The notes below the pieces were generated by a model. That model made no database searches. It worked only from the letters and a program-made list of their open reading frames with translations, and was not told the DNA's origin. This document shows, in pieces, positions 25,736 to 60,172 of a stretch of DNA of 64,000 bases. The position numbers and the translations under genes are program-made. Every line of letters starts with the position of its first letter. Position 1 is the first letter of the stretch. This DNA is from Longimicrobiales bacterium (GTDB lineage Bacteria; Gemmatimonadota; Gemmatimonadetes; Longimicrobiales; Gaopeijiaceae): positions 864,001 through 928,000 of the forward strand of contig CBDCNQ010000005.1 of assembly GCA_965219445.1 (NCBI GenBank), written 5' to 3'.

Positions 25736-25998
25736 GTCCTGTCGGTTGTCCTGTCGATTGAACGCAGCAGATCACGACATCTCGGACTCGCGAAAGCGGC
25801 AAATCGCGCGATCCATCTGAGTTTTCCGGCATCCTGCCGTGATTCCGACCCCTACGAAGGCGCCTGATAAGCGTGAGGTCGGTAGTTCGAGTCTACCCAG
25901 GCCCACTTTTTAAGTAGAAGCCCCGCAAGGTCTTACGGCCTTCGGGGTTTTGCTGTAACAAGAAAAGCCTGAGGGCAATAACACTGGCAGTTACACTG
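25736..25998 (+). other. att-like junction 1: arm repeats, tRNA-Ile(GAT) 3' half (25861-25905), arm
   Basis: CGCCTGATAAGCGTGAGGTCGGTAGTTCGAGTCTACCCAGGCCCA with no 5' tRNA half. 12-bp-period repeats GTCCTGTCG(G/A)TT on the left and GCAATAACACTG/GCAGTTACACTG on the right. Confidence 0.85.
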
Positions 25999-26019
25999 CC
26001 GTCCCTGGTTGGCCCCGAC

Positions 26020-26352
26020 CTAGGCGATCCGCAGGCACCGCAGCCGGTCGCGAATGCCCTCGCGGTCCCGGTGTTGCTCGATCCGGAACTCGGCGTGTTC
26101 GGAGCGGTGTCGGACCTTGCCCAAGTGGCCATATACGCGCTTGATCAACGAGTCACCGCCGTGCCCCAGCTCACGGGCGACGGTGTACGTGGAGATGGGA
26201 AAACCCTGGTCGAGCGTCTGGAGTCGCGCGGCGCAGTAGGTGTGGCGAAAGATCTTGGTCCTGATCTCGCCGGGCTGCCAACCCGCCGTCATGGCGACCT
26301 TGTCCAGCTGCTTGCGGATGTCGGTGATCATCCTCCCCGTCTTGGGCGCCAC
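26020..26352 (-). pseudogene. Tyrosine recombinase/integrase C-terminal remnant
   Basis: IFRHTYCAARL...VARELGH...IKRVYGH; N-terminal part absent; points toward the tRNA-Ile fragment. Confidence 0.85.
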
Positions 26353-26470
26353 GCGCCCCCGATCAGATCTCCATGAAAAGTCCGTGAGGTCGGACTATCC
26401 CCGCCGAGCGTGCCGGAGTATTCTGATTGCGCGCACGCCCGCGCCTGTTCCCTCGGAGGAGGAGTCCCGC

Positions 26471-27190
26471 ATGACGATCTCGAGACGCGACGCCATCGCC
26501 GTATCCGGGTCCGCAATCGTTGGCCTGTCGGTCGGCGGCTTGGATCCTAAGGAGTTGGCGGCTCAGGTCGCCGGACAGGAGCAGGAGTTCCCGGACCGAC
26601 TCATCGACGTCGAGCCGCGCGCCACGTTCCCGGTGGACCTCCCGCTGAACCCCGACGGCTCGGCCCCCGAGCATCCCGAGTCGGCCGCCGGCCCGATCCG
26701 GGGCCGCCTCATGTGGAGGACGTCGGACCGCAGGGCGCCCGAGATCGAGTACGACTACACGAGGATGGCGATCCGGGTGGACACGCGCGGGCTTGGCACC
26801 AAGCGTGGGACGATGCGGTTCAGCGACCTCGAACCCCTGACGAGGGTTTCGCACACCTTCCTCATGCAGTGCGGTGCACCGGAGCCCACCGGTATCGTGA
26901 AGTGGACCGGGGTTCGCTTCACCGACTTCGCGGACATGCTCGGCCTCGTTCCGGGCGCCCACTACTGCCGCTTGACCGCGTCGGACGGCCACTACGTGGA
27001 CGAGTCCGTGGAGGAGTTGCGGCATCCGCAGGTCATGCTCGTCTGGATGATGAACGAGGAGCCGCTCGATCCCCAACACGGAGCGCCCCTGCGTCTCGTC
27101 ATGCCGTTCCGGTATGGCAATCGGAGCATCAAGGCGATCACCGAGATCATCTTCGGGACGCCGGGGCTGCCGCGGCCGGGGACGGGGTAG
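26471..27190 (+). CDS. Tat-exported molybdopterin-dependent oxidoreductase (sulfite oxidase/MsrP-like)
   Basis: SRRDAI twin-arginine signal, MQCG, KWTGVRF, PLDPQHGAPLRLVMPFRYGNRSIKAITEI. Confidence 0.85.
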   Translation: MTISRRDAIAVSGSAIVGLSVGGLDPKELAAQVAGQEQEFPDRLIDVEPRATFPVDLPLNPDGSAPEHPESAAGPIRGRLMWRTSDRRAPEIEYDYTRMAIRVDTRGLGTKRGTMRFSDLEPLTRVSHTFLMQCGAPEPTGIVKWTGVRFTDFADMLGLVPGAHYCRLTASDGHYVDESVEELRHPQVMLVWMMNEEPLDPQHGAPLRLVMPFRYGNRSIKAITEIIFGTPGLPRPGTG

Positions 27191-27195
27191 CAGAC

Positions 27196-27306
27196 GTTTT
27201 TGGGGTCCCACTTGGGGTCCCATGGGCCCCTTTTCGCCCCCAACTCCCGGACACCAAAAAGCCGGGAGCCCAGATGCTTCCTAGCCTCCCAGCCAATGAG
27301 CCGGGT
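27196..27306 (-). repeat. Lys-type att arm (intron-free copy) including the last tRNA-Lys bases
   Basis: Reverse complement ACCCGGCTCATTGG...GGCTTTTTGGTG|TCCGGGAGTT...GGGACCCCAAGTGGGACCCCAAAAAC matches 50268-50322 joined to 52223-52279. Confidence 0.85.
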
Positions 27307-27369
27307 GCACCCGGGAGTCTGCGGAGCTGTGGTCAGCCGCTGAGTCTACGACCTAGGGCCACCCGGGTT

Positions 27370-27843
27370 CTAACCGCCGATCAGGTCCCGCGTGGCCTCG
27401 ACGGCTCCATCGGGAACGGACCCTGTCGAGGTCACCAAGGCGACCCAGATCGACCACCCGTATCTCTCTGTCAGGATCTCGCCGAGACGCCTAGCCTCCG
27501 ACCCGGTCGATGCCGCTCCAATGCGCACCCGACGGAACTGCCGGCCCTCCACTTCCTGGTCCGCGGTCCAGGCTGGAAGACCCAGGTTGGCCAGCCGGTC
27601 CCTCTGCACGACTGCAGAGTCGGGATTCAGGAAAGCTCCCATCTGGACGGTGTAGAGGGGACCGCTGATGGGTTCGGGCTCGGGCTCAGGTTCGGGCTCG
27701 GGCGCCGGCGTCGCTTGAGCGACAGGCGGCGGCGGTGGCTGGACCTGTTCCTGGGGCTGCTGCTCCTGGATCGGCTCATCGTCACCGCCGCAGGCCGCCA
27801 CGGCCACGGCGAGCCCGAATATCGGGATCAATCGCCAATGCAT
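27370..27843 (-). CDS. SPOR-domain lipoprotein with Pro/Glu linker
   Basis: AVAAC lipobox, PEPEPEPEP, YTVQMGAF...RVRIG. Confidence 0.85.
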   Translation of the reverse strand: MHWRLIPIFGLAVAVAACGGDDEPIQEQQPQEQVQPPPPPVAQATPAPEPEPEPEPEPISGPLYTVQMGAFLNPDSAVVQRDRLANLGLPAWTADQEVEGRQFRRVRIGAASTGSEARRLGEILTERYGWSIWVALVTSTGSVPDGAVEATRDLIGG

Positions 27844-28335
27844 GTCTCGTCTCCTTCAAGTTGTCGGAGAGGAAGGGTGCCTCCGAGTCTGCACGATCCG
27901 CACGCACCCGTCCATAGGCGATGAAGATGTGCGGTGGGCGTCGACTGCCGGGTTATCCGGTTCGGGGCGCAAGGATTCGCTCGGATTAAAAGTCAGTTGC
28001 TCGACATAGGGCACGGCAAGCGTCCCCACCAAGCAGGGACTCCCGAGAGCCACTCCAAGAAACACGTTCGTGTTACTGCCAGTGCTATTGACCTCACGCC
28101 TCATCTGATACAACAAAGCCTTGCAGGCCGTAAAAGACAGCGGGGCTTATACTTGCGAAGTTGACCTGGAGAAATTCAAACTACCGACCTCACACTTGGG
28201 GAGCGGGAGGTCGATAAACTAACTGGCTCTCGATCGTAGCTTCGGATCGAGTCGACCGGGAGAGCGCCTGGGCCTAGCGCCGCGTGTCAACAGGTAATTA
28301 TTACTCTCGATAATACGCGACTTGGAGATGAGTCC

Positions 28336-28665
28336 ATGATAGAGACACTGATGGCGTTGGACGTTGCGGACAACGATGGATATCAAGCCTACCGAGACGC
28401 AATGCTTCCGTTGCTGGAGCGAATCGGCGGTGGGTTTCGGTATGATTTCACGATCGCCAAGACTCTAAGAAGCTCAGCCGGACACGAGATCAACCGTGTC
28501 ATCATCATCTACTTTCCGAATCGGCAGGCGCGAGACCGCTTCTTCGACGATGAAGCCTATCGGGAAATCAGGGGGCGGCTCTTCGAGACCTCAGTGAGGG
28601 ACACCACCATCATTGGGGAGTGGGAAGTCGGCCCGAGTACATCCGCAAGTACAGACGGATTATGA
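28336..28665 (+). CDS. DUF1330-like small alpha/beta protein
   Basis: Y.AYRDAM.PLL..IGGGF...NRVIIIYFP......FF.D..Y..IR pattern. Confidence 0.7.
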   Translation: MIETLMALDVADNDGYQAYRDAMLPLLERIGGGFRYDFTIAKTLRSSAGHEINRVIIIYFPNRQARDRFFDDEAYREIRGRLFETSVRDTTIIGEWEVGPSTSASTDGL

Positions 28666-28729
28666 CCCGGAAGTGTCGGACCGAGCGTGGAGGAGATCCT
28701 GGAGCCGTCTCCGGCCTCGAGATGAGCGT

Positions 28730-28921
28730 CCGCTGCGCGTCACGTGGAAGGAAGAGGAGCTCCAGAAGCTCCTGTGCGACATCATGACCGGCATCCACGA
28801 CCGCTGCGCCGAGTACGGCCGAACCTCCGGCGACTACATCGACTACGTGCAGGGCGCGAACATCGGGGCGTTCATCAAGGTCGCCGATGCCATGCTGGCC
28901 TACGGAGTGGCTAAAAGCTAG
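28730..28921 (+). pseudogene. gdhA: Glutamate dehydrogenase C-terminal fragment
   Basis: W.EEE...L..IM..IHDRC.EYG....IDYVQGANIGAFIKVADAMLAYGV. Confidence 0.8.
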
Positions 28922-28973
28922 CTTAACGCTTGCTTCATGTAGGCCAGGTTTCCCAATGTGAGGAGGGCACTCC

Positions 28974-29858
28974 ATGGCAACCAACGGGACGATTCTGGTC
29001 ACGGGCGCGACGGGCAACGTCGGCTCCGTTCTCATCGAAAACTTGACGAAGGCCGGAGCCAACGTCCGCGCCCTTGTTCGCAATGAGTCGAAGGGGAGGG
29101 CGCTCAGAGACGCCGGCGTAGAGCTCGCCATCGGCGATCTCAGCAGGCCGGAGACACTGGACACGGCATTCGCCGGTGTCTCCAAGATTTACTTGCTAAC
29201 CCCTTTGAGTGAAGACCAATACGAACTCGCCAGTAGTGGCCTCGCCGCCGCCAAACGGTCTGGGAAGCCCCATGTCGTCAGGTCCTCGGGGATGATACCC
29301 GCACCGTTCGAGGAGTCGCGCGTCGGGCGGCATCAAGTCCAGCTCGAAAATGACCTCAAGTCGTCGGGCCTGCCATATACGATCCTGAAGCCGCACTTGT
29401 TTATGCAGACCACGATGATCGCGGCAGAAACAGTCAAGGCCGAAGGCGCGATTTATATGCCACTGAAGGACGGAAAGATAGGAATGATCGACGCTCGCGA
29501 TGTTGCGGAAGTGGCGGCAAAGGTCCTTACCTCAGCAGGCCATGAGGGCAATAGCTACGAGTTGACCGGCCCGGCGGCGATCTCGATGCATGACGTGGCG
29601 GCCGCGCTTTCCAAGGCTCTCGGGAAGCCAGTCAAGTACGTCGATGTGCCCCCTCAAGCTGCAAAGGAGTTCCTCCTCGGGATGGGGTTCCCAGAGTGGA
29701 TCGTGGGCGCGAATCTCGAGTTTTTCCAGAAGTTCAGCGAGGGAGGCGGCAACCAAGTAACCGGGGACTTTGAGAAGCTTACCGGACATGCGCCTCGTTC
29801 GTACGAGGACTTCGCGAGGGACTTCGCCAGCGTCTTTCAGGTAGCGAGCTCTGTCTAG
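28974..29858 (+). CDS. NmrA-like / atypical SDR NAD(P)-dependent oxidoreductase
   Basis: ILVTGATGNVG, YTILKP, IDARDVAEVA, YELTGP. Confidence 0.9.
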   Translation: MATNGTILVTGATGNVGSVLIENLTKAGANVRALVRNESKGRALRDAGVELAIGDLSRPETLDTAFAGVSKIYLLTPLSEDQYELASSGLAAAKRSGKPHVVRSSGMIPAPFEESRVGRHQVQLENDLKSSGLPYTILKPHLFMQTTMIAAETVKAEGAIYMPLKDGKIGMIDARDVAEVAAKVLTSAGHEGNSYELTGPAAISMHDVAAALSKALGKPVKYVDVPPQAAKEFLLGMGFPEWIVGANLEFFQKFSEGGGNQVTGDFEKLTGHAPRSYEDFARDFASVFQVASSV

Positions 29859-30299
29859 GCTGAAGCTCCAGTTCTCTCTTTGCATGTAGCGTGTCACCGC
29901 CATGACGACATGACCACCTCCTGCCCCCACGTCTGGTGGAGCTGCATTGGGGTTCCACTCAAAGCCCGCTGAGTGACGCCAGTATCTCAGTCGGCTCCGG
30001 CCGCTTCGTATAGTCCGGATCGGCGGCCGCAAAGCGAATGATCCCCTCACCGTTCACGATCGCGGCCCCCATCCCGCCGTCATTCCAGCTCGAGTGGGCC
30101 GAACTCCGCTACCTGCTGATTTTGGTCTGTAGATAGAAGAAGTCGGCATCCGTGCTTGGCCCTGTGCTCCGCACGTACTCTCCGGCCAGGAGACGACCGT
30201 ATCCGCCGGGCCTCCCATCGATCGGCGTCGATCCTACGTCTTGATTCTGTAGCCGCGCGCTCCTCACGAGCATTCCCCCTTGTCATCGTGGGTTGGGCG

Positions 30300-31559
30300 T
30301 TACACATCCCGTTCCAGGATCATCGCCGACGCCTGGGCACCCGCCGCACAGATGCTCACGAGCCCGTACCGCACGTTACGCCGCTTCATCTCGTTAGCCA
30401 ACGTCGTGACGATCCGGGCTCCCGTGGCGGCAAACGGATGGCCAACCGCGATGGAGCTTCCGAGTTGGTTCAGCTTGTCCTGATCGACCGTTCCGATCGC
30501 CGGCTCCTTCCACCCCTGCCCCCACGCGCGCAGGTTGCACGCGACCTGTCCGCCGAACGCCTCGTGCATCTCAATCAGGTCCAGATCGGAGAGGGTAAGG
30601 CCGGTGCGCTTTAGGAGCCGCGGCACCGCGACGCCCGGACCCATGAGCAGGCCGTCCTTCGGGTCGATCGCTGCGTACTCGAAATCCTTCACAAACGCGA
30701 GAGGTTCGTGACCCTCGTGGCGGGCTCGATCCTCCGACATGAGCAACACCGCGGCCGCGCCGTCCGTCAGTGGACTCGAGTTCCCCGCGGTGAGCGTCCC
30801 TGTAGGACCGCGATCGAACACCGGCGGCAGCTTGGCCAGCTTTTCCATCGAGGTGTCGGCCCTGATGAACAGGTCGTGATCGAACCCGTCGAGGGGGTGG
30901 ATCTCGGTCTTCAGGCGGCCGTCTTCCATCGCTCGGTGCGCGTTCATGTGACTGCGATACGCGATCTCGTCCTGCTCCTCACGCGGGATCTTCCACTCCT
31001 TGACCATGAGCTCGGTGTGCTCGCCCATCGACAAGCCAGTAGACGGCTCCTTGACGCCGGGAGCGTGAGGCTTGAAGTCCCCGGGGCGCAGTCGGGCCAA
31101 GAGGCGGAGACGCTGCCCGAGTGTCTTGGCCGCTGCGGCGTCGAGGAAGATGCGACTCGCCCGTTTGCCGAACAGCAGCGCCGGGTTGGACATCGACTCT
31201 ACCCCGCCCGCGATCCCGATCTCGGCGCGGCCGGCAACGATCGAGTCGGCGATCGCGGTAATTGCCGACGTTCCCGTGATGCAGTTGTTCGTGAGGGTCA
31301 GTGCCTGCACAGTGGAGGGTAGTTTGCTGGAGAAGACAATGTCCTTCGTGAGGTGAGGGATCCGCGGGTCGACGACGGTAATCCCGAACGCCAGTTCCCC
31401 AACCGACTGTGGATCGAGACTCTGCTTCGCCAGCAAGCCGTCCACCGCGTGAACGCCCAGGTCGAGCGCCGAGTACTTGCGGAACACGGTGGCCGCCCTG
31501 GCGAACGGCGTGCGTGCACCGCCCACCACCGCCACTCGAATCGATCCGTCGTGCGTCAT
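30300..31559 (-). CDS. Acetyl-CoA C-acyltransferase (thiolase, FadI-like)
   Basis: GGARTPF, NNCITG, TAGNSSPLTDGA, EMHEAF, GHPFAATG, SICAAG. Confidence 0.92.
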   Translation of the reverse strand: MTHDGSIRVAVVGGARTPFARAATVFRKYSALDLGVHAVDGLLAKQSLDPQSVGELAFGITVVDPRIPHLTKDIVFSSKLPSTVQALTLTNNCITGTSAITAIADSIVAGRAEIGIAGGVESMSNPALLFGKRASRIFLDAAAAKTLGQRLRLLARLRPGDFKPHAPGVKEPSTGLSMGEHTELMVKEWKIPREEQDEIAYRSHMNAHRAMEDGRLKTEIHPLDGFDHDLFIRADTSMEKLAKLPPVFDRGPTGTLTAGNSSPLTDGAAAVLLMSEDRARHEGHEPLAFVKDFEYAAIDPKDGLLMGPGVAVPRLLKRTGLTLSDLDLIEMHEAFGGQVACNLRAWGQGWKEPAIGTVDQDKLNQLGSSIAVGHPFAATGARIVTTLANEMKRRNVRYGLVSICAAGAQASAMILERDV

Positions 31560-31771
31560 GAAAGCTCGCTCCTCTCTGTACGACTTGGTCAGTTCCCTGA
31601 TGGATATTGCAGGTTCCACAGGTAAAGTGGCTCATCGTGAGTCAAGGTGTTCTACCCCGCGCAGCACGAGAGCTTCGCTACATCCTGGTGGGGCATTCTT
31701 GTATCTCCGGTTATTCGGCCACCCTCTCCAGGGAGACCCCCGCTCGATCCGTCGGCCGCCCCGAGTAGGTC

Positions 31772-32209
31772 CTAAGCGGCTTCGCTCACGGGCGCAGGAC
31801 CTTGTGAGGGCTCACCGTACACGGCACCCACGACGCCGCCGTAGATGATGTGACCGATTAGCGCCCCCATCGCCATGTTCATGTCTCCGGAGAAAAAACC
31901 CATCCCCATCATCGGCATGAGGGCCACCTGTGCGAGCAGCCACGGAGCCAAGCCGAAAAGGGCGCCGCGAACGACCACCGGCCCGGGTAGGGACCCCGCG
32001 ACCGCGGCGTACACCTCAGCCAGGATCACGCCGATCATGAAGTGGGCGATCCATCCCATGACCGCGCTCCCACCCATTTGGTCGGCAAGCATCTCCGCAG
32101 GGTTCATCATGGGGATGCCCATCATGGGCGCTGCATAAAGACCGACGACCGTCATCATCACTGTCCCGATGATGCCGGCCAACGCGGCGCGCCCGAAGTT
32201 CACGTTCAT
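31772..32209 (-). CDS. Small 4-TM Met/His-rich membrane protein (DUF2938/DUF6789-like)
   Basis: GWIAHFMIG, MPMMGMGFF, GHIIYG. Confidence 0.7.
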   Translation of the reverse strand: MNVNFGRAALAGIIGTVMMTVVGLYAAPMMGIPMMNPAEMLADQMGGSAVMGWIAHFMIGVILAEVYAAVAGSLPGPVVVRGALFGLAPWLLAQVALMPMMGMGFFSGDMNMAMGALIGHIIYGGVVGAVYGEPSQGPAPVSEAA

Positions 32210-32351
32210 GCTTCCTCCTTTGTCTGGCCCCAGGAGGGGCCTGCTGGGTACCGGCGGGAGCGACTTCGTTCCTTACTGTAAGCTGAGGGCCCCGGAGTTG
32301 CGAGTCGACCGAAGCCGGAACCGAGTGAGAGTTCGATCATCGACTGGAACA

Positions 32352-32652
32352 TCACTGACGCCGCTCTTCAGGCGCTGAGCTCGGGGGCGTCAAGCATGGC
32401 GCCGGGTGCCATCATCGTGAAAGAGAATTATATGCCCGACGGCACCCTGGCCGCCGTCACGACGATGTTCAAGGTGCGGGGTTACAAGCCCGACGTGAAC
32501 GACTGGTTTTTCACCAAGCATCTCCCCAGCGGCGAGTTGGATCGAGCGCCCACCGGAATGGCCATGGAAGGGCGACTACCGGGTTGCACCAACTGCCACA
32601 GGTGCAGACGAACGACTACGTGTTCACCAGCCAGCTAGGTGGGGGGACTTGA
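32352..32652 (+). pseudogene. Cytochrome P460-family fragment (5' truncated, frameshift after CxxCH)
   Basis: GAIIVKENY...TMFK...DWFF...CTNCH; NDYVFT continues in another frame. Confidence 0.7.
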
Positions 32653-32821
32653 GGTTTCTCCAAAGTTGCCGTAACGGAGATCATCGCGCGGGAGTTCTTT
32701 CTAGAGCAGGTCACCAGGGCCTTCGTCGGCGAGAACGTGACGACGAACGGCACGGTCGATAACATCGAACAGCTGCTAAGGGCCGCCGAGAGCTAGGTCC
32801 CCCTGTCCAAGGAGCACCCCT

Positions 32822-34546
32822 GTGAAGAAACCATCAGTGTCCCAATATATCGTTTCCGCCCTCGCGCAAGCCGGAGTGCAGCGGGTGTACGGAATCGTCG
32901 GCGATTCACTCAACGGAGTCACCGAAGCCGTCCGCCGTCATCCCGATGTGGAGTGGGTGTCCGTGCGGCACGAGGAAACCGCTGCATTCGCCGCCGCGGC
33001 CGAAGCTCAGCTGACCGGTCGGTTGGCCGTGTGCGCCGGCAGCAGCGGGCCCGGGTGTATTCACCTCGTCAACGGGCTGTACGATGCGCAGCGCAGCCTG
33101 GCGCCAGTGTTGGCGCTGGCGGCCCACATCCCCTCCACCGAGATCGGGACCGGATTCTTCCAGGAGTCCCATCCCGACCGGCTCTTCGTCGACTGCAGTC
33201 ATTATAGTGAGCTGATCTCCTCCCCCAGGCAGATGCTCCGCACGCTTCAGATTGCCATGCAGACCGCAATCACCCGGCGCGGGGTCGCCGTGGTCGTGCT
33301 GCCGGGAGATGTCGCGCTGGCCGAGATGACCGACATGGATCTGGCGCACCCCATCGCCGGGGACTGCTCGCGCAGCCAGCCATGTGACGACACCCTGGCC
33401 GAGCTCGCGGGTCTGTTGACCGGCAAGGCCAGGGTTACGATCCTCGCTGGCGCGGGGTGCGCGGGCGCCCACGGTCAGCTGCTGGAGGTGGCCGCCACTC
33501 TCAAGGCTCCGATCGTGCACACGCTACGGGGCAAGGAGCACGTCGCCTACGACAATCCATATGACGTGGGAATGACGGGCCTGATTGGTCTCCGCCCCGG
33601 CTACAAGGCGCTGGAGAGGTGCGATGTGCTCCTCATGCTGGGCACGGATTTCCCCTACGCCGACTGGTATCCCAAGGGAAAGACCATCATCCAGGTCGAT
33701 ATCGACGGGCAGCGCCTGGGACGCCGCTGCGGCCTGACCCTAGGGGTCCAAGCCGATGTAAGGGAGACGCTGACGGCTCTCCTGCCCCTCCTGGCAAAGA
33801 AAGAAGACTCCGGCCATCTGGATCAGGCGGTCAAGCAACACGTGTCCGCACGCAAACGCCTGGACAAGCACGTACGGAAATCGACGAAAGAGAAGCCGAT
33901 CCACCCCGAGTACCTGACGACCATCGTGAGCGAGCTGGCCAACCCCGACGCGGTGTTCACGGCGGATGTAGGGATGTGCACGGTCTGGGCAGCGCGGTAT
34001 TTGGAGATGACCAGGGAGCGCCGTCTGCTGGGTTCTTTTACCCACGGCTCGATGGCCAACGCCCTTCCCCAGGCGATCGGAGCTCAACTCTGCTATCCCG
34101 ATCGCCAGGTGATCTCACTCTCCGGAGATGGCGGGTTCACCATGCTGTTGGGGGATTTCATCACGCTGGTGCAGGGGGGGCTTCCGGTGAAGGTGGTGGT
34201 CTACAACAACAGCTCGCTCGCGATGGTCAAGCTCGAGCAGAACGTGGCTGGGCTCCCTGATTTCGGGACGCAGCTGGAGAATCCGAATTTCGCCAAGGTC
34301 GCCGAGGCGATGGGGGCGCGAGGAATCCGCGTGGAGGATCCAGGAGAAGTCAGATCTGCAGTGGCGTCCGCGCTAGAGACGGACGGCCCTGTCTTGCTGG
34401 ATGTGCTCACGAATCCTGGCGAACTCTCGATGCCTCCCAAGACGACGCTGAAGCAGGTCCAGGGATACAGTCTGTACCTGATCAAGGAGATCCTGGGCGG
34501 GCGCGCCGGCGGTGCGATCGAGTCACTTCGAAGCAGCCGTCGGTAG
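32822..34546 (+). CDS. poxB: Pyruvate dehydrogenase (quinone) / pyruvate oxidase, TPP-dependent
   Basis: GIVGDSLN, VRHEETAAFAA, FQESHP, GSFTHGSMANALPQAIG, GDGG...NN. Confidence 0.92.
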   Translation: MKKPSVSQYIVSALAQAGVQRVYGIVGDSLNGVTEAVRRHPDVEWVSVRHEETAAFAAAAEAQLTGRLAVCAGSSGPGCIHLVNGLYDAQRSLAPVLALAAHIPSTEIGTGFFQESHPDRLFVDCSHYSELISSPRQMLRTLQIAMQTAITRRGVAVVVLPGDVALAEMTDMDLAHPIAGDCSRSQPCDDTLAELAGLLTGKARVTILAGAGCAGAHGQLLEVAATLKAPIVHTLRGKEHVAYDNPYDVGMTGLIGLRPGYKALERCDVLLMLGTDFPYADWYPKGKTIIQVDIDGQRLGRRCGLTLGVQADVRETLTALLPLLAKKEDSGHLDQAVKQHVSARKRLDKHVRKSTKEKPIHPEYLTTIVSELANPDAVFTADVGMCTVWAARYLEMTRERRLLGSFTHGSMANALPQAIGAQLCYPDRQVISLSGDGGFTMLLGDFITLVQGGLPVKVVVYNNSSLAMVKLEQNVAGLPDFGTQLENPNFAKVAEAMGARGIRVEDPGEVRSAVASALETDGPVLLDVLTNPGELSMPPKTTLKQVQGYSLYLIKEILGGRAGGAIESLRSSRR

Positions 34547-34734
34547 TGCATCCCGGGGAGGCCTCGTTACGCGCGCCCCCCGATGGATACCAAGCCTACC
34601 GAGACGCCATGTCCCCGTTGCTGGAACGAATCGGCGGTGGGTGCACGTCGCTGTGCACGTTCAGGTTTGAGACGGCCATGGAGTCGACCTGATCCGCACG
34701 ATACTGGCGCGTAGATTGGCTCGGTGCAGAGAAG

Positions 34735-34990
34735 GCTGTAACACTGGCTGTATCATCGCCCACCAGCGCTGACGAGCGCCCACGAGCGCAGATTCGCTGA
34801 AATACCCCTGATTCCAGCGCTGGCTGGCGCCCACGAGCGCTCGACTCATATCTGATAAGCGTGAGGTCGGTAGTTCGAGTCTACCCAGGCCCATTGTTGG
34901 GAATCGTTGCCCCTACTGCACATACCTTCGGTGGGGGCTTCGCTTTTTCTGCGTGTCAGGTCCTATGCTGTCAACTACCGCTGTCAATTG
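34735..34990 (+). other. att-like junction 2: arm, tRNA-Ile(GAT) 3' half (34852-34893), different right arm
   Basis: Core identical to 25864-25905; left repeats GCTGTAACACTG/GCTGTATCA; right repeats GCTGTCAACT/GCTGTCAATT. Confidence 0.85.
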
Positions 34991-35085
34991 AGCCGCGAAA
35001 CGGCTTCCTCGGCTTGCTTCATGGCTGCCCTCATGTCCTCTAAATCCACCATATCGTAGATGCTGCTCAGGGTCTCGCGACAGGA
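34984..35085 (-). pseudogene. Possible extreme C-terminus of a second tyrosine integrase
   Basis: RETLSSIYDMVDLEDMRAAMKQ resembles the catalytic-Tyr tail; same position and orientation relative to the att core as the 26020 remnant. Confidence 0.4.
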
Positions 35086-35315
35086 GTCCTCGTGGGAGGA
35101 GTGAGCCCCACGTTGGACAGCTACGTGATCGGGTGGTAGGGAGCATCTTCGCTTCGGCAAGCGCTTTCCACTCGTGGGCGCCGACTTGATTGTGGCAACG
35201 CGCTCCAAGCGCTATGGTCCCGTAGCCGGTTGTTCGAGATCGCCAATGGAGCGGCGGGTGACGGGGCCAAGGCCCCGTACAGACGTACCTGCCCGCACTG
35301 ACTGGGAGGAACGGC

Positions 35316-52222: not shown

Positions 52223-52280
52223 TCTGGGAGTTTGTGGCGAAAAGGTGGCTTTGGTACCCCAAGTCGGACCCCAAAAACTC
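52223..52280 (+). repeat. Remainder of the Lys-type right arm
   Basis: TCTGGGAGTTTGTGGCGAAAAGG...GGTACCCCAAGTCGGACCCCAAAAACT. Confidence 0.8.
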
Positions 52281-52725
52281 GGGTTGCCTGACGGGAACTC
52301 AGCAACGCATTGGACAATCTGAAGGTGACCGAGCGGTTCAGCCGGGTCGACGAGGAGACCATCCTGCGCGGCGCGCGTTATCAGGAGAGAATCGAAGCGC
52401 AGGGATTCCGCCGCTGACCCTTCATTCACCCCCGGCTTACTTCCGGAGCGCCTCTGGTGGCGTATATGCTGTGGCCATAAAGTTCAGGCAGCCGGAGCTC
52501 AGCGACGGGGCAGCGTCGCTTGAGCATCCACCGGGCGCACGGGATGAAGAATTCGGTCTGACCTCGCATGCCGAGGGGTCGAATGAGGGGAGGGAATGAG
52601 ATGAAGCGCTTCGTTGTCCCCGTTGGTCCACCTACGCACGCTCGCCCGCGCCGCTGTTCCCAGGCCCGCTAGCGAGCGAAGTCCCGCCAGCCCCTCCGAT
52701 CACTTTCGAAAAAAGGAGACCCAAC

Positions 52726-55500
52726 ATGAAGTACCCTCGTATGGAACGCAGTAGACGGTTCGGCCTTTGCGGGCTTGTGGTACTGGCTGTGGCAGTCCTC
52801 TCGGCGGCGCCGGCCACAGCTCAGGAGGGCTCGATCACCGGCCGCGTCACCGACGCCGCCGATAACGAGTCACTCCTCGGCGCACAGGTGTTCGTGGTCG
52901 GCACCGCACGGGGAGCTCTGACCAACGCCAACGGGGGCTACACCCTCCGGCTTCCCCCCGGGACGTACACGGTTCGCGCGCAGTTTATCGGGTACGAATC
53001 CTCCGAGCAGACCGTCACCATCACGGCGGGCGCAACCCAGCCGCTCGACTTCCCGCTCCAGGTTGGCGGGCTACTCCTTGACGCGATCGTGGTCACTGGT
53101 GCGCGGACTCAACGTTCGGCAGTCGAGACCACGGTGCCAGTGGACGTGGTCACCGCGGCCGAGATCGCACAGTCGCCCCACACCGAGTTGAACCAGGTGA
53201 TCCGGGATATCATCCCGTCCTTCAACGCTTCTCACCAGACGATCTCGGACGGGTCCGATCATGTGAACCCGGCCAGCCTCCGGGGTCTTGGACCCGACCA
53301 GGTCCTCGTCTTGATCAACGGGAAGCGCCGTCATCACAGCGCGCTCACGCACGTGAACGGGACGTTCGGTCGCGGTACCGTCGGTGTCGACTTGAACGCG
53401 ATCCCGACAGCGGCGGTCGAGCGGATCGAGGTGCTGAGAGATGGCGCCGCGGCGCAGTATGGTTCGGACGCCATCGCGGGTGTCGTCAACATCATTCTCA
53501 GGAGTCAGACCGACGCGTTGATCGGCAACGTTCAGACAGGCGTGACGGGCGAGGGCGACGGCGAGCAGGTGAACGCCGACGCCAACTTCGGCTTCGACGT
53601 CGGCGAGAGCGGCTTTTTCAACGTCACCGGCGAATACCTGAACCGTCAGTCGACGAATCGCTCGGATCCGTATCAAGGTGCCCTCTTCTTCACCGACAGG
53701 ACCGCGGACGATGCGGAGATCGCCGCGCGCGGGCTGACCCGCGAGGGACTGAGCATGAGGACGGGACAGGGCGAAGCGATTTTCGGAAGCGCCTTCTTCA
53801 ATGGCGCGTTCAACCTCTCCGGCGACGCCGAGCTCTATACCTTCGGTGGTATCACACACCGCAACGGTATCGCGACCGGATTCTATCGACGGCCGATCCA
53901 GGAGGAACGGGTCGTCTTCTCCCTCTACCCGAACGGCTTCCTTCCCGAGATCCACACGCAAGTGGGTGACCGAGCCATCACAGTGGGCCTGCGCGGTAGG
54001 AAGGCCGCGTGGGACTTCGATCTGAGCGTGGCCAGTGGCCGCAACACGTTCCAGTACAATATCGAGAATACGAACAACGCCTCGGTGGGAGATGCCAGTC
54101 CCATCTCCTTCGACGCAGGTAAGCTGTCGTACCGGGAGACCACTGGAAACTTAGACGCGGTCCGGCTCATCGACACGGGTGGGACGCTGAGGTCCCTGTC
54201 GCTGGTGCTCGGCGGAGAGTTCCGTGTCGAGAACTTTGAGATCGGGGCGGGGCAGTTCGAGTCGTACAGCCTCGGGAACGGCGGGTCCGTTCCGGGGGTC
54301 GACTTCGACACGATCTCGACGGGAGAGCCCAAGGCAGCGGGTTCGCAGGTGTTCCCCGGCTTCCAGCCCTCCAACGAGGTGAATCGTAATCGAAACAGCA
54401 TCGCGGCGTACGGAGGGCTCGAGGCGCAGGTGTCCGACCGGTTCATGGTCGACGTGGGCGGGCGCTTCGAGAACTACAGTGACTTCGGAAACACCTTCAA
54501 CGGGAAGGTGGCGGCCCGCTTCGAGGTCGCCGAGGACTTCGCGCTGCGGGCAGCGGTCAGCAACGGATTCAGGGCACCGTCGCTCAACCAGCTCTGGTTC
54601 AACAACGTGAGCACGCAGTTCGTCATCGATCCGGTAACGAGCGAGCTCGTGCCTGCGCGGGTTCTCACCGGGAGCAACAAGGATCCGGTAACCAAAGCCT
54701 TCGGCGTGCCGGATCTCAAGGAAGAGACGTCGATCAACGTTTCAGGTGGCTTCACCTGGCGACCGATGAACAACCTCTCCATCACCAGCGACCTGTACTA
54801 CATCGATATCGACGACCGGATCGTGCTCTCGAGCCGATTCAGCACGTCGGATGCCACCATTGGAGGCGACGTGGCGGGCATTCTAGCGCCGTTCGCGTCG
54901 CTTGGCGTCTCGCAGGCGCAGTTCTTCGTGAACGCGGTCGACACCGAGACGAAGGGCGTGGACGTGGTCATCAACTATTTGACGCAGTTGATGGACGGCT
55001 CGCTCAACCTTACCGGTTCGGCAAACTTCACCAAGACGGAGGTGAAGTCGATCAACGTACCGCAGTCGATCGCAGACAGGTTCACGATGGGGAGCACCGA
55101 TGCGATCGCGGACGTCCTCTTCAACCGCGAGGAGTTCAACCGGCTCGAGACGGCGCTTCCACGCCAGGCGGGCTCGGTGTCCGCCCGTTGGACGCGCGGC
55201 AGGGTCAACGTCGGGCTCAGTGGGAATTACTACGGCAAGATATTCTACCGGCCGACCAACACCGCCAACGACGAGGAGTTCGGAGCCAAGGTCCTGTTCG
55301 ACGCGAACGCAGGCTACGAGGTCACCAACGGTGTCACGCTCCAGGTCGGCGCCAACAACATCTTCAACACGTTCCCCGACAAACACCAGAAGGACGCGAA
55401 CATCAGCAGCGGGAACTTCCCGTACAGCCGACGAGTCACGCAGTACGGAATGAACGGCGGCTACTACTACGCGCAGCTCCGAGTCTTTTTGGGGAGCTGA
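52726..55500 (+). CDS. TonB-dependent receptor
   Basis: IVVTG.R, LRGLGPDQVLVLINGKRRH, RIEVLRDGAAAQYGSDAIAGVVN, GFRAPSL. Confidence 0.93.
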   Translation: MKYPRMERSRRFGLCGLVVLAVAVLSAAPATAQEGSITGRVTDAADNESLLGAQVFVVGTARGALTNANGGYTLRLPPGTYTVRAQFIGYESSEQTVTITAGATQPLDFPLQVGGLLLDAIVVTGARTQRSAVETTVPVDVVTAAEIAQSPHTELNQVIRDIIPSFNASHQTISDGSDHVNPASLRGLGPDQVLVLINGKRRHHSALTHVNGTFGRGTVGVDLNAIPTAAVERIEVLRDGAAAQYGSDAIAGVVNIILRSQTDALIGNVQTGVTGEGDGEQVNADANFGFDVGESGFFNVTGEYLNRQSTNRSDPYQGALFFTDRTADDAEIAARGLTREGLSMRTGQGEAIFGSAFFNGAFNLSGDAELYTFGGITHRNGIATGFYRRPIQEERVVFSLYPNGFLPEIHTQVGDRAITVGLRGRKAAWDFDLSVASGRNTFQYNIENTNNASVGDASPISFDAGKLSYRETTGNLDAVRLIDTGGTLRSLSLVLGGEFRVENFEIGAGQFESYSLGNGGSVPGVDFDTISTGEPKAAGSQVFPGFQPSNEVNRNRNSIAAYGGLEAQVSDRFMVDVGGRFENYSDFGNTFNGKVAARFEVAEDFALRAAVSNGFRAPSLNQLWFNNVSTQFVIDPVTSELVPARVLTGSNKDPVTKAFGVPDLKEETSINVSGGFTWRPMNNLSITSDLYYIDIDDRIVLSSRFSTSDATIGGDVAGILAPFASLGVSQAQFFVNAVDTETKGVDVVINYLTQLMDGSLNLTGSANFTKTEVKSINVPQSIADRFTMGSTDAIADVLFNREEFNRLETALPRQAGSVSARWTRGRVNVGLSGNYYGKIFYRPTNTANDEEFGAKVLFDANAGYEVTNGVTLQVGANNIFNTFPDKHQKDANISSGNFPYSRRVTQYGMNGGYYYAQLRVFLGS

Positions 55501-55681
55501 CGGCCTGACGGCGCCACCGACCCGTCCGGCTACCAACCGGGCCGGCCGGTCCGGTGAGATGAGGGGGTTGTGCCCTCGGGGTCCTGGAGACCCCGGGGGC
55601 ACCTGCCCGGTATGCAGGAAGAGTCGGCGGCGTGCTAGGGGCACAATCAGGATGAGCCTACCGCGTCCCAGAGCCCGTTCT

Positions 55682-55745
55682 CACGTGGAAGGGGAGACGC
55701 TCCGGGAGAAGCTAAACCGAGAGCATCAGCTTCCTGTGGACGAGG
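55682..55745 (+). pseudogene. Ser/Thr protein kinase internal scrap
   Basis: HVEGETLREKLNREHQLPVDE resembles the kinase subdomain V-VIa segment. Confidence 0.55.
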
Positions 55746-56697
55746 GATCTATTGCCCGCTGAAACTGTGTAAACGCGGTTTGGAGGGTTGCCGGGGTGCG
55801 CTGGTTCCAGAAGTAGCGACCCCGCAAATAGGCCTCATGCGCTTCGGTACTCTCCGTCGCCTCGGTTACGAGTCGCCTCTGCTGGTCCCCCGAGAGCGTG
55901 ACCTGAAGCTGATCTGCGATGGCCGTCGCGATCTCCCGCTGGATCGCGAAGATGTCGTCTAACTCACGCTGGAACGTGTTCGACCACAGTTGTGCGTCGC
56001 TCCGGGCCTCTACGAGTCGGGCCGTGATCACCACTGTTTCGCCGGATCGACGGACGCTTCCTTCTAAAATGTGTGCGACCCCAAGCGTATCCGCGATCTG
56101 CTGATTCCTGAGGTTCTGACCCTTGAAGGCAAACGACGACGTGCGACCCGGAACCCGGAGGTCGGGGATCTGCGCGAGAGCGTTGAGCAGCTCCTCGGTA
56201 ATTCCATCCGAGAAGTACTCGTTGTCTGGATCACCGCTCATGTTGTCGAAGGGAAGGACCGCGACCGACTGCTCGATGTTTGGTGAGTCACCCGTGTCTG
56301 ACCCGCCTCCGAGCCCTCCGCCGAACAAAATCCACCCGGTTCCGACAAACCCAAGCAGCGCGAATGCCAGCACGCCACCCCCGAAAGCGTTGCGCCAGGT
56401 GAAAAGACTCGCGCCAGGGGGAGCATCAGCAGTGCGGGTGGCTACATCTTTCGCTTGATGACCCGGTCTGCCTTCCTGAACGAACGCAGTGGCGAGAACG
56501 ATGGGTAGGCCGATGATGAGGAGCGCCAACGCAAACGACGGAAACCAGTCCGGCAGATTGAGCGCACCACCCAACGTGTCCACGACCTGGAGCACCGCCC
56601 AAGACGCGACGAGATAGATCCCCAGCACCTGCCACAGAGACCTCCGGTGGATCTCGCGGATGAAGCGCCTGAGAGGACCTTCAGATGGGCTGACCAT
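55726..56697 (-). pseudogene. Membrane-anchored TolB-like/TPR protein, 3' truncated
   Basis: EIHRRSLWQV..., SVAVLPF.NMSGDPDNEYFSDGITEELLNAL, EAHEAYLRGRYFWNQR; ends abruptly at the first TPR. Confidence 0.75.
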
Positions 56698-57268
56698 GAT
56701 CCGCACAACATGCGTCTAAGGAGTGCGAGGGGGCAAGGATCTCAGCGAATCTAGAGCAACACGAGTGGCAGGGCTGGCGTTGTATGGCGGTGATGCGGAG
56801 AAGGATTAGTTGCCCACCTCCGGCTACGATGCGGTCGATCTCGGCTCTGAAGCTGGGGGCGTACATCTGTCGTACTTCAGTCCACACGGCCCTAAACGCC
56901 GGAAACTCCAACCCGAATCGCCAAGCGTTGACTCGTGCATCGTACTCTTCGCCAGTGAACAGGCCGCGTTCAAACTGGTAGTGGGAGTTTTCATATTCCC
57001 GGAGAAGTCCCTCTACGAACCACGCCCACACCCTCTGATCTACTGGGTCGAGTTCGCCGGGTGCTGTTTCGGCCGTCGTAACCACTTCTGCGAGGTCACG
57101 GTTAGTAGCGAGCCACTCGATGAACATCATCTGCTTCTCAGTAATTGAGTCCCGAGTTTGGGCCTCAACGGCCTCGGTGTTCTGCTGAAGTTCAAGCCCC
57201 AAGAAGACGATTCCAGCGACCACAGACAGATTTGCGATGAGCGCCAACCGCTCATTGAGCTTGTTCAT
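56681..57268 (-). CDS. Hypothetical protein with N-terminal TM helix
   Basis: LIANLSVVAGIVFLGLELQQNT...ENSHYQFERG...F..EIDRI; the last ~45 codons may be readthrough from a lost end. Confidence 0.65.
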   Translation of the reverse strand: MNKLNERLALIANLSVVAGIVFLGLELQQNTEAVEAQTRDSITEKQMMFIEWLATNRDLAEVVTTAETAPGELDPVDQRVWAWFVEGLLREYENSHYQFERGLFTGEEYDARVNAWRFGLEFPAFRAVWTEVRQMYAPSFRAEIDRIVAGGGQLILLRITAIQRQPCHSCCSRFAEILAPSHSLDACCADHGQPI

Positions 57269-57489
57269 GGGCAGAGCCTCCGGTTGGGTGAAAGAGGGCT
57301 AGACGCACCGAGCCCAATGTACAGCACCACTCTTGGCCCCGTCACGGAGGCTCAGGTGGAGGCCACCCTGCCGAACCGATCTTCCTAGTGGGAATCGTCC
57401 TTCGAGTAACGTTCTCTGAACATTCTCAAGAAATTCTTGCGTACTTCTGAGCAGGAGTCACACGTCTATATGCGAAGGCCCGCCTTGGG

Positions 57490-57781
57490 GGGAAGTGGCC
57501 ACTACGCGAACAACCGGTCTGAAGTATCGCATCCGCCTACGCGACAACGAGAGCGGCAGATGCGACGCTTCAAGTCGGCGGGTCAAGCACAGCGATTTCT
57601 GTCAGTCCACGGCGTCATCCAGAATTTGTTCAACCTCGGGCGCCATCATCTCCGTTCAGAAAACTACCGACTGCTACGGGCTCGCTCTTTCAAAGATTGG
57701 AGTGCGGCTACGGCGGCCTGAGCAAATTCCGGCCGATCCCCTACCTGGACTTCACTCTGGCCACATCAAGTTGACAATGCC
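57490..57781 (+). mobile_element. IS6-family right-end remnant
   Basis: YANNRSEVSH.PTRQRERQMRRFKS..QAQRFL; IR AAGTTGACAATGCC at 57768-57781. Confidence 0.85.
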
Positions 57782-57900
57782 CCTCGAGGAGCTGCACGAT
57801 GTTGCGAGCTACATACATAGCGATATGGATCAGAGAGCTGCAGCGGCACGGGCAGCGGCGAAGTAGGTCTCTATAACATGAACAGGTAAGCGAGGTTTCG

Positions 57901-58988
57901 ATGATGCACACAAGAATGAGTTGGGGCCTGCTGCCGCTGCTGGTTGTAGCATTGACTGTCTGCGCGGCGCCGGCGACCGAGCAGAACGACTACAGCAACC
58001 CCGAACATGACGCCGACCAACAACCTGCCGAATCCCTTCTCGGAGAGGCAGCTCATGGCGCTGCCCGACGGCCGCACCTGGGGGTTCCACGGCCGGCGCC
58101 GACGCCGCCAAGGGCCGAGACGACATCTGGGCTATCGACCGATGCGGGAGCAATGGCTGTGTGGACTCCGACCTCGATCCCCTCATGCACTACGACGCAA
58201 ACGGGAACCTGATTGGCCGTATGGGGGCCAACTTGTTTGCGTTTCCACACGGTATCCACGTGGACCAGCAGGGCAACGTGTGGGTGACCGACCCGCTGCC
58301 GCCCGACGGCCGCGGTGCGGGCGGCGACGTTGGACAGCAGGTCACGAAGCTCAGCCCGAGCGGTGAGATCCTGCTGCAGCTCGGCACGCTCAAAGTGACC
58401 GGGAACGGCCCCAACCAGTTCAGCTCCCCGTCCGACGTCGTCGTAGGGAGTAACGGCGACATCTTCGTTGCCGATGGTCATGGCGAGGGCACGAACGAGC
58501 GCATCATGAAGTTCGACAGAAACGGGAACTTCATCTTAGAGTGGGGCAAGCCGGGCAACGGCCCATGCGGAACGGGTGAGTTCTCGAGCCTCCACGCGAT
58601 AGACATCGATTCACAAGGCCGGCTGTTCATTGGCGATCGCGATAACAACCGCATTCAGATCTACGACCAGGACGGCAACTATCTAGATTGCTGGTACCAG
58701 TTCAGCCGCCCCAGTGGGATTTTCATCGACGCCGAAGACAACCTGTTCGTCGCGGACTCCGAGTCGAGGGACGGCGCCGACAATGGCATGGACCTGGCTC
58801 ACGCCGGATGGGAGCGCGGAATCCGGATCGGCAGCGCTCGCGACGGCGTCGTGAGTTCTTTCATTCCGGATCCTGACCCCCGGGGCGGCAGCAGCGCAGC
58901 CGAGGGCGTCACAGCGATCAACGGTGGGGCGGTCGTCTACGGCGCCGAGGTGGGTCCGAGAGCCTTCGTCCGCTACGACAGAAGGTAG
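57901..58988 (+). CDS. NHL-repeat PAL-like secreted protein with two +1 homopolymer frameshifts
   Basis: Three successive frames give the signal peptide, NNLPNPF...LPDGRTWG, and STAG...IWAIDRCG...PHGIHVD. Extra C near 57999-58002 and extra G near 58080-58084. Confidence 0.75.
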
Positions 58989-59001
58989 GATCCAGCCGAA
59001 A

Positions 59002-59133
59002 GGCGTTGTCAACTTGTGCTCGTGCCAGCGAGACTCCGGAATCATAACGCATACGAATGGCTACCGCGGCTACTGTTTTCCTCCGGAGATCATCAGTCAC
59101 GGCGTCTGGCTGTACCACAGGTTCTGCCTGTCT
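59002..59133 (+). mobile_element. IS6-family left-end remnant
   Basis: IR GGCGTTGTCAACTT (59002-59015) followed by YRGYCFPPEIISHGVWLYHRFCLS. Confidence 0.85.
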
Positions 59134-59134
59134 T

Positions 59135-59271
59135 GGTACCCTGACTGAGACCCCAAACTCCCCGAAACTGGTCGAATCTAGCGAGCACTCGGGGGAACAA
59201 CCGACCCTCTAACGCCCTAACTCGCCACGAGTTAAACGACCTCACAGGCACTATGCGTATATGCTGCTATC
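59135..59271 (+). repeat. Lys-type left arm copy lacking the tRNA core
   Basis: Colinear with 50096-50232: GACCCCAAACTCCC.GAAACTGGTCGAATCT...AACAACCGACCC..TAAC.CCCTAACTCGCCA...GCGTATATG.TGCTATC. Confidence 0.88.
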
Positions 59272-59495
59272 CTGGGGACACCGCCCATCGGACAGCTCGG
59301 TCAGAGTATCGTGACCGGCGAAGGGCCCGCAAGCCGCGCGGATTTGGCTCCATCCCGGCCTACTTGGCTGTTGAGATCCTGAATCTGACTGACGGTGGCG
59401 GAGAAACGAACCCCGAAATACGTTGAGAACGGTCGAGGTCGACCCCCGAGGTGAGGTGCAGGCTCCCGCACTGATTCTCTCGAAGGAGGTTCGCA

Positions 59496-60056
59496 ATGTT
59501 CGCTCTGTCCGGTCGTACTTTACTCTACTTGCTGCTGTGCATCTTAGTGATGCCATTTTCCCTCGTTTTTGCCCGGTTGGCTGACGCACGAGCAAATGAG
59601 CTGGCCGCCGGTGGAGCGCAGCAGGATCTTCCTTGCCCTGGGGGCCCGTTGCAGAACTTTGTCACGGGGACGAGCGAATCGGGGGTTCCCTCGCCGGAAG
59701 CAGTAGCCAATGGTGAGCCCCTCACTGGCCGTTATTGGGGTCCGGGCTCCCGCTCCTTCTGGCACTGCCACGGTGGAGGCCAATACATCATCGTGATGCA
59801 AGGAGTGGGGCGCTTTCAGCAGCGCGGACAAAGAATGCGGGAGCTCCATGTCGGTGGCATCGAATTCGCGCTTCCAGGGGTGGAGCACTGGCATGGTGCC
59901 TCGCCTACGGAAGGGGCTCGACACATCAACCAGGGCCTGCGGATCGACGGGGGAAGCGGCACCTTCTGGATGGAGGAGGTCAGCTCGGCCGATTATTTGG
60001 GAAATGGAATCGGGATTATGTCCAGAATGAGATACCTGGAAACTGGAGAACGCTAA
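59496..60056 (+). CDS. Secreted cupin-domain protein
   Basis: PGSRSFWHCHGGGQYIIV..G.G, PGVEHWHGA; AAGGAGG RBS. Confidence 0.85.
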   Translation: MFALSGRTLLYLLLCILVMPFSLVFARLADARANELAAGGAQQDLPCPGGPLQNFVTGTSESGVPSPEAVANGEPLTGRYWGPGSRSFWHCHGGGQYIIVMQGVGRFQQRGQRMRELHVGGIEFALPGVEHWHGASPTEGARHINQGLRIDGGSGTFWMEEVSSADYLGNGIGIMSRMRYLETGER

Positions 60057-60096
60057 AATAGAGGTGAGTCAGCTCCGGGTCTCGGAGCCCGGCCGG

Positions 60097-60172
60097 GGGA
60101 CCCAACCGGGACCCCAAACTCCCCGAAACTGGCAGAATCTCAGCAACACTGGAGAGCACCGCCGACCCCTAC
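60097..60172 (+). repeat. Partial Lys-type left arm
   Basis: GGGACCCAACC-GGGACCCCAAACTCCCCGAAACTGGCAGAATCT. Confidence 0.75.

Follow-up and report, generated by a model that had tools for sequence, protein, structure and literature searches.

What kind of mobile system is represented by a row of metabolic, redox and transport genes that is punctuated by pieces of tRNA genes? This question is raised by a 64,000-nucleotide stretch of a Longimicrobiales genome, referred to as the window (G000:C5:864001-928000). Hereafter, G-numbers denote genomes, G000 being the source genome with contigs C1-C5 (4.56 Mb in 5 contigs, 92% complete); L-numbers denote contigs or loci, and X15 and X16 denote sequencing runs (contigs). 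The attachment (att) arm types A, B, C, D, E and K were named in this analysis. An initial annotation had read the row as an integron-like array of non-autonomous cassettes mobilized in trans. Our analysis indicates instead that the stretch is probably a decayed site-specific accretion array of the type formed by cis-mobilizable elements (CIMEs), which combines Ile and Lys material, stands apart from its tRNAs and is for the most part broken.

Attachment junctions of the window

Four tRNA 3' halves lie on the plus strand of the row, where the initial annotation had placed them. They match the tRNAs of G000 itself at 95-100% identity: Ile(GAT) cores at 25861/25864-25905 (45 nt, 100%), 34852-34893 (42 nt, 100%) and 37984-38023 (40 nt, 95%), and a Lys(TTT) core at 50236-50277 (42 nt, 100%), with E-values of 1e-11 to 4e-17. 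The core pattern and the arm pattern gave 3 matches each, against 0 in 100 shuffles. All four cores begin at the 7-nt anticodon loop, the site at 25861 having 3 extra matching bases. Such a start corresponds to subsite A in Islander; among tRNA islands, no other crossover class is as common (PMC4383910). No tRNA gene was found in the window; the intact genes were located elsewhere, the sole tRNA-Ile(GAT) of G000 on C4 and tRNA-Lys(TTT) on C3. The window holds 3 of the 13 Ile fragments and 6 of the 49 tRNA-fragment matches of G000, and is thus not unique in its genome.

Across all Ile cores of G000 and of the stretches taken from three congeners, one target bears arm types A, B, C, D and, once, E. 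At the first Ile site of the window, an A-type P arm (25738-25863, plus strand; two 12-bp-period repeats and a spacer) adjoins the tRNA half at 25864-25905, which is followed by a terminator-like hairpin and a B-type P' arm (25919-25998, plus strand) with 98% identity to the arm beside an intact integrase on metagenome contig L076. The second site combines a complete B-type P arm and its Ile core (34735-34893, plus strand) with E-type P' repeats of 13-bp period (span 34969-35136), a similar arm being present behind tRNA-Ile of G001. The third (37895-38100, plus strand) comprises a B-type P arm without its outer repeats, an Ile core with 4 differences and a degenerate B-type P' arm. The Ile junctions are accordingly A|B (25864), B|E (34852) and truncated B|B (37984). 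Because their arms come from several integrase families, these junctions are chimeric. The initial annotation was right in recognizing att junctions of tRNA-targeting tyrosine integrases, with repeats of 12-13-bp period, and mistaken in treating each as a single P-O-P' attP. Arm-to-core spacing is nearly fixed at most sites, namely 104-105 bp for A, 105-106 bp for K, and 96 or 86 bp for B.

The remaining modules are fragments. They include an inverted Lys-type P' arm with its terminator and last tRNA bases, the core being gone (27196-27307, minus strand); a degenerate inverted Ile core with a B-type P' arm (28068-28197, minus strand; 75% over 128 nt to 25869-25996); a B-type P' remnant whose P arm and core were deleted at a 10-bp microhomology (40424-40473, plus strand); an outer B-type P arm without its core (44911-44942, plus strand), whose junction has an intact core in G006 and G084; an inner piece of a B-type P arm (47519-47555, plus strand); a K-type P arm that stops 3 bp before the loop, its core deleted (59134-59271, plus strand; in G006, at 96%, the same junction of NHL gene and arm keeps its core); and the outer half of another K-type P arm (60096-60169, plus strand). 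G006 thus retains the cores lost at 44942 and 59271, and a B-type P arm stands in G005, G007 and run X16 where the window has the 40424 remnant. By these comparisons the orphan arms are deletion products. The arm pieces listed by the initial annotation are all present, and their distance of 6-40 bp from cargo stop codons was confirmed; its inventory lacked the inverted Ile site at 28068-28197, a tRNA-Pro(GGG) fragment and an insertion sequence (IS) element, described below. Only the unit 25864-34893 has matching intact ends. Every other unit of the window is missing a core or an arm, which speaks against the integron reading.

A pile-up of truncations at the crossover point was considered and rejected, as the truncated P arms that stop no more than 5 bp from the loop number just 4 and the others are scattered. 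Contig pieces from X15, which may be the source sample, cross the mosaic junctions at zero differences (e.g. 25887-28617); the junctions are therefore not assembly errors.

The Lys junction

The K-type P arm, the tRNA-Lys(TTT) 3' half and its terminator (50094-50322, plus strand) are separated from the K-type P' arm (52223-52303, plus strand) by a group II intron with a reverse transcriptase/maturase (50323-52222, plus strand; PF00078, PF08388, RF02001, RF01998) inserted behind the att terminator. Hence 52223 is not an orphan arm, as had been supposed, but the P' arm of core 50236, and 27196-27307 is the intron-less allele. There are 13 near-identical copies of the intron in G000, mostly behind hairpins and several right behind tRNA, transfer-messenger RNA (tmRNA) or att terminators. 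From this insertion behind hairpins we take it to be of class IIC. In G006, a different intron occupies the same Lys terminator. Behind the real tRNA-Lys, on C3, the row contains a junction with 99.8% identity to the segment 50214-52302.

K arms occur at Lys tRNAs of both anticodons, in 20 of 401 genomes and 10 genera. The surroundings (about 1.5 kb) of 30 P' loci, where two matches belong to other sites, and of 30 P loci, where two matches are B-type remnants, yielded no K integrase. A conserved 40-60 bp upstream of some K arms was rejected as an integrase tail, since it is an IS91-like element end. This end (Y2 transposase) abuts K-type P arms in several genomes and is trimmed variously (L217, L218, L219, L226; G000:C4:1033151-1033207); it gave one viral match, and PF04986 had no match in G000. 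In four genomes, K-type P' arms are succeeded by tRNA-Ser(CGA) fragments in inverted orientation (G000:C3:362509-362535 and the Lys rows of G004, G006 and G007).

Integrases and their remnants

In each integrase-linked arm type, the integrase lies on the P' side and is directed toward the core. The window retains the C-terminal third of the cognate B-type tyrosine integrase (26020-26352, minus strand), its 5' part being deleted. This remnant faces the B arm just like its intact relative, a PF00589 protein of 409 aa that adjoins the same arm and core on L076 and with which it shares 92% identity (100 of 109 residues); a cognate integrase, as sought by the initial annotation, thus exists in the gene pool. 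A weaker trace at 34987-35136 (minus strand) represents the probable last 50 codons of a D/E-family integrase, with 33% identity over 45 aa to the intact tRNA-Ile integrase of G005 (pairwise E 3e-6). Among the 56 window open reading frames (ORFs) scanned, no intact integrase, relaxase, type IV secretion system, phage or conjugation family was found, and the remnant at 26020-26352 was the single integrase-profile match. The reported absence of an intact integrase and of phage or conjugation genes was therefore borne out, whereas both remnants had been missed.

Intact B integrases form 3 protein clusters (12 sequences) at 86-94% identity, yet no full-length B integrase above 56% identity was found in 301 genomes, G000 included. 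More remnants, of other lengths, lie beside B arms in L078, L080 and L085. An integrase remnant beside the A arm in G008 is 63% identical to an 18-member integrase family of G000, which is the family of the integrative and conjugative element (ICE) adjoining the window. For the D/E types, intact integrases were found behind tRNA-Ile in G005 and G001. The 73 integrase-profile matches in G000 include just one, the window remnant, at 2.5 kb or less from an A, B or K arm. Integrases related to that of type B (44-55%) reside in tRNA-bounded elements of about 9-16 kb with helix-turn-helix and primase/helicase genes, one of them with capsid genes. A phage origin was rejected, as the B junction, the K and A arm patterns and the B integrase were found in no viral contig, exact patterns making this a weak test. 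Serine resolvases were not found in G000.

G000 contains 68 PF00589 matches, with families of 31, 18, 4 and 3 copies, and five relatives contain 16-48; 35 of the 68 lie in the first 1.3 Mb of C5, together with just three doubtful tRNA calls. C-terminal integrase remnants were also observed immediately upstream of intact genes for tRNA-Ile, Ala, Val, Asn and Arg (G000:C4:766912-767031, 298044-298502, 502126-502233 and 853380-853577; C2:379400-380119), some with 5' tRNA fragments further upstream. They may derive from an integrase family that targets tRNA 5' ends.

Rows in related genomes

The first Ile module was matched in 35 of 41 genomes, many by the tRNA alone; the unpublished genome G025 contributes to tallies of this kind and to no other claim. 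Rows of five cores stand behind tRNA-Ile in G005 and G006, and tRNA-Lys rows were found in G005, G006, G007 and G128. In these four genomes the intact target tRNA heads the row, unlike the window; further rows in G006 and G084 have no tRNA in the stretch examined. The 30 core-to-core intervals of 10 rows measure 1.1-15.5 kb (median 4.4 kb), which falls in the CIME size range. An intact integrase was found in 1 of the 30, namely in the unit adjoining the tRNA in G005, so the view of the units as small and integrase-less proved sound. In Streptococcus salivarius, the most decayed units are those farthest from the target (PMC7563491), and the sole intact integrase of the G005 row lies next to the tRNA as this rule predicts. 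The layout in G005 is nested, with a B junction within a D element, and is compatible with transfer in cis with an accreted element. Behind tRNA-Ile on C4, matched arm pairs flank units of 2.3 and 3.1 kb.

Do these rows amount to a true integron analogue, in which a single dedicated resident recombinase uses tRNA cores in place of attC? The rows of small units, the intact integrases beside the tRNA in G005 and G001 and the presence of an integron integrase in G000 would fit such a system. Integrons are IntI/attI/attC systems. However, a consensus scan of 25001-61000 gave one palindrome inside a gene and no attC-like site in any module (a simple consensus, without a covariance model). No IntI lies beside the array, and the only TIGR02249 match above the cut-off is on another contig (G000:C2:398589-399521, L213). 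The tRNA-proximal integrases of G005 and G001 have D/E arms while the units behind them have B arms, and they are present in 2 of 12 genus genomes only. The window units contain 2-7 genes each in both orientations, not one co-oriented gene per site, and the at least four arm/integrase families already contradict a single recombinase. The integron analogy is thus highly improbable: the likeness consists in a row of small accessory units, and the array differs in its double-stranded lambda-type att sites, its several recombinase families and its mixed orientation. The IntI gene on C2 sits in a 33-kb stretch between tRNA-Arg(CCT) and its fragment, with one attC-like site at about 405.5 kb.

Cargo sharing and breakpoints

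The first unit contains a molybdopterin-oxidoreductase gene block (26357-27196, plus strand; PF00174), the 99% copies of which stand behind tRNA-Ser(CGA) in G008 and in the Lys row of G005. It is followed by a SPOR-domain gene (27370-27843, minus strand), which forms one block with the Lys arm and recurs with it at 95% in the Lys array of G004, and by DUF1330, NmrA, thiolase, DUF6789 and thiamine pyrophosphate enzyme genes (28336-34546, both orientations). A 62-bp piece of the DUF1330 gene (28374-28435) is duplicated at 34581-34642, just before the B arm, with 90% identity. Further cargo comprises phosphoenolpyruvate mutase-like, DsbD N-terminal and thioredoxin-like genes (35316-37869, plus strand); an M23 peptidase (plus) and an amidohydrolase (minus; 38235-40290); a cation/H+ antiporter (plus) and a TrkA-domain K+ channel (minus; 40588-44894); a TonB-dependent receptor gene in two frames owing to a frameshift (44948-47480, plus strand); MarR (minus), NmrA and methyltransferase genes (both plus; 47735-49926); a TonB receptor, unassigned ORFs and an NHL-repeat protein (52726-58988); and a cupin gene (59496-60056, plus strand).

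Five congeners were searched for this cargo. Syntenic core flanks showed 80-88% identity in 17 of 18 blocks (four non-syntenic matches excluded), and the window cargo showed 84-99% identity in other orders. As had been anticipated, cargo order varies between genomes and cargo moves horizontally. Ile-side genes reappear in Ile rows (amidohydrolase 97%, antiporter 92%, channel 95%) and Lys-side genes in Lys rows (NHL 96%, cupin 96%). In G084, a member of another genus, the antiporter-channel block (94%) follows an Ile fragment and ends at the edge of a B arm; the channel-gene block common to G006 and G084 crosses the Ile core and stops at the core end. The antiporter-channel unit has been eroded differently in G000, in G005, in G006 and twice in G084. 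The identities show that blocks of cargo plus arm have moved between species and genera. In relatives, several of the cargo genes stand without an att site close by.

Among the 22 shared blocks, none covers a whole core-to-core unit, and 3 include an arm in both genomes. The ends of variable blocks had been expected at cores or arms; they were mostly found at gene ends or short microhomologies, not at the crossover. These ends, together with the microhomology junctions at 40424-40435 and 27196, would be accounted for if the att modules served as homology anchors, i.e. if look-alikes of 100-300 bp recombined on one side and microhomology joined the other, the integrase having been idle after the first insertions. 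The 99.8% identity of 50214-52302 to the C3 Lys-row junction, seen even though the intron should block an integrase there, points the same way. On the other hand, the arms are just 76-89% alike and are therefore poor substrates for homologous recombination, and conserved core-binding symmetry and spacing are left unexplained, which makes this mechanism improbable.

Possible signs of site function

Could the sites still be at work? A living pool of non-autonomous arm-cargo-arm cassettes might be excised and inserted again at tRNA or att copies by integrases that rare helper elements supply in trans, with ICEs, capsids or vesicles as carriers; the window would be a damaged sample of that pool. 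We consider this account unlikely, though deserving of serious weight. It agrees with the near-pristine tRNA halves beside cargo-adjacent arms, the fixed arm-to-core spacing, the intact B integrases, and cargo at 92-99% identity in rows of other species or genera against 80-88% for the core genome; the precise end of the G006/G084 channel block and the matched arm pairs on C4 likewise speak for it. It is opposed by the lack of whole units among the shared blocks, the lack of any full-length B integrase above 56% identity among the 301 genomes, the many sites without a core or arm, and the Lys junction split by the intron. Moreover, no precise core-to-core joint was found among the 15 listed of 29 joints (contigs only, from four runs, in which low-level circles are invisible and parts without cover carry no information). 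The trans mobilization inferred by the initial annotation was not observed in these contigs.

Several observations also weigh against a purely decayed array. First, 24 of 54 att copies equal the tRNA at all 42 positions, while their P arms differ by 11-24%. Mismatches amount to 2.0% in positions 2-17, the recombination half, versus 3.5% in positions 18-40 (p = 0.046); position 1 was dropped since 12 Lys(CTT)-type sites differ there from the gene of G000, and the sites, found by alignment, are biased to good copies and include non-independent kin. The perfect halves and this skew fit recent or repeated integration, not solely old fossils. Second, only 3 cargo-arm junctions are common to genomes among 63 P-type sites, nearly every P arm adjoining different cargo. 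Conservation falls at the arm edge, the shared flank fading within about 60 bp in most cases, which could reflect selection for working sites. Third, no integrase was found for the K arms in 60 loci, so a parent element of K type is putative, as is any route by which the row left its tRNAs.

A broader form of the pool account would hold that marine Longimicrobiales maintain a family-wide set of minimal cassettes, still excised and re-inserted at tRNA-Ile, tRNA-Lys and off-site att copies by rare helper integrases, with the K family as a wholly non-autonomous branch. We regard it as rather doubtful. If true, such a helper-served pool would parallel integrons in function while using lambda-type att sites. 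If trans mobilization were demonstrated, the movement of integrase-less islands would become directly testable with one enzyme and one 9-kb unit.

Proposed history of the array

Returning to the favored reading of a decayed accretion array, the following history may be proposed. Small integrative elements of several tyrosine-integrase families (A, B and D/E at tRNA-Ile; K at tRNA-Lys) would have inserted serially at the anticodon loop. Each insertion would have left a junction made of the P arm of one element, the tRNA 3' half, a terminator and the P' arm of the next element, which is the anatomy seen today. Deletions would then have removed integrase and replication genes and brought cargo against the arms, giving CIME-type units of 1-15 kb. 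Deletion itself is evident from the nested integrase remnants; the order of events we infer. The Ile row and the Lys row were probably joined away from both tRNA genes by an IS- or ICE-linked rearrangement. Blocks would most likely have travelled in cis, aboard an incoming ICE or integrase-bearing element, or have been exchanged via recombination at repeated att DNA. The row in G000 is now largely locked, with one unit having both ends and no intact cognate integrase found.

Flanking features

An IS3-family element marks the left edge of the array (24378-25643, minus strand), as identified by rve/HTH_Tnp_1 matches, its ends and 99.9% copies elsewhere. On C3 and C4, Ile fragments are accompanied by a split IS3, which was rejected as a trace of integration since its junctions are unlike one integrase event. 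Next to the element of the window, a tRNA-Pro(GGG) 3' fragment (25647-25688, plus strand; 83% over 42 nt) is joined to the A arm of the first Ile site. The succession of Pro(GGG) fragment, A repeats and Ile site (25647-25863) recurs on C4 of G000 and in G006 and G008; it may represent an element that has been emptied and whose ends derive from two tRNAs.

Immediately right of the window lies an ICE-like cluster (G000:C5:928374-941000, L151) with integrase, ArdC, VirB2 (pilin), VirB4, VirB6, VirB9, VirB10 and AlpA genes; a transfer route may therefore exist. The coupling protein PF02534 was not found in G000, and two ORFs match TraG-D_C. For most integrases of this family, the end lies at arm repeats and a constant short motif that is not followed by a tRNA, which suggests low target specificity. 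A cobalamin riboswitch is located at window position 19805-19943, upstream of a TonB receptor gene. Elsewhere in the genome, 17 tRNA genes are clustered in 2.4 kb (G000:C3:31920-34298), and this cluster is also present in G008. Where a habitat is stated, the runs holding the stretch are marine or sediment.

Comparison with known systems

No description of such cassette arrays in Gemmatimonadota was found in the literature searched. The known kinds, i.e. CIME accretion, ssrA islands, additive islands and tycheposon remnants, cover what is seen. CIME accretion has been modelled in three steps, namely integration, decay into a CIME, and accretion (PMC5704250), and streptococcal CIMEs measure 1.2-13 kb (PMC7563491). 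The streptococcal elements of these two studies share with the row the integrase-less units that keep att sites, tandem stacking, chimeric internal att sites, the least decayed element next to the target, and metabolic and redox cargo. The rows described here reach 5-6 junctions, compared with two or three elements in S. salivarius (PMC7563491). They further differ from streptococcal CIMEs in that at least four integrase families act at two tRNAs, some rows lie far from a tRNA, and the B-type parents resemble small replicative or satellite elements, not ICEs.

The ssrA islands of Dehalococcoides are alike in that many tandem islands occupy one tDNA and near-identical cargo sits on different modules; 15 of 31 have no integration module (PMC3146451). 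Their target is tmRNA, their integrase is of the serine type and their module has six genes, whereas the present systems are anticodon-loop tyrosine systems with visible arm repeats. Prochlorococcus tycheposon islands (bioRxiv 2020.12.28.424599) resemble the array in being marine, in their tRNA-targeting tyrosine integrases, excisionase and primase/helicase, and in scattered partial tRNAs and fragmented integrases. They belong to another phylum, and nearly only remnants are left here, the comparison being one of descriptions. The additive flexible islands of Alteromonas (PMC4898812) likewise consist of tRNA-repeat-marked cassettes behind tRNAs, near-identical across species and with an order unlinked to phylogeny; in the present case, by contrast, arm types and cognate integrases are resolved, and rows also occur off-site.

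Integrase-less rows escape island finders that need an integrase and a nearby tRNA (PMC4383910). The locus carries salt/pH and redox cargo that crosses genus lines beside att sites. On the favored reading, it extends CIME-type accretion to marine Gemmatimonadota with unusually clear anatomy, in which several integrase families meet at one tRNA site, the arms and their spacing are legible, and one cognate integrase is in hand.

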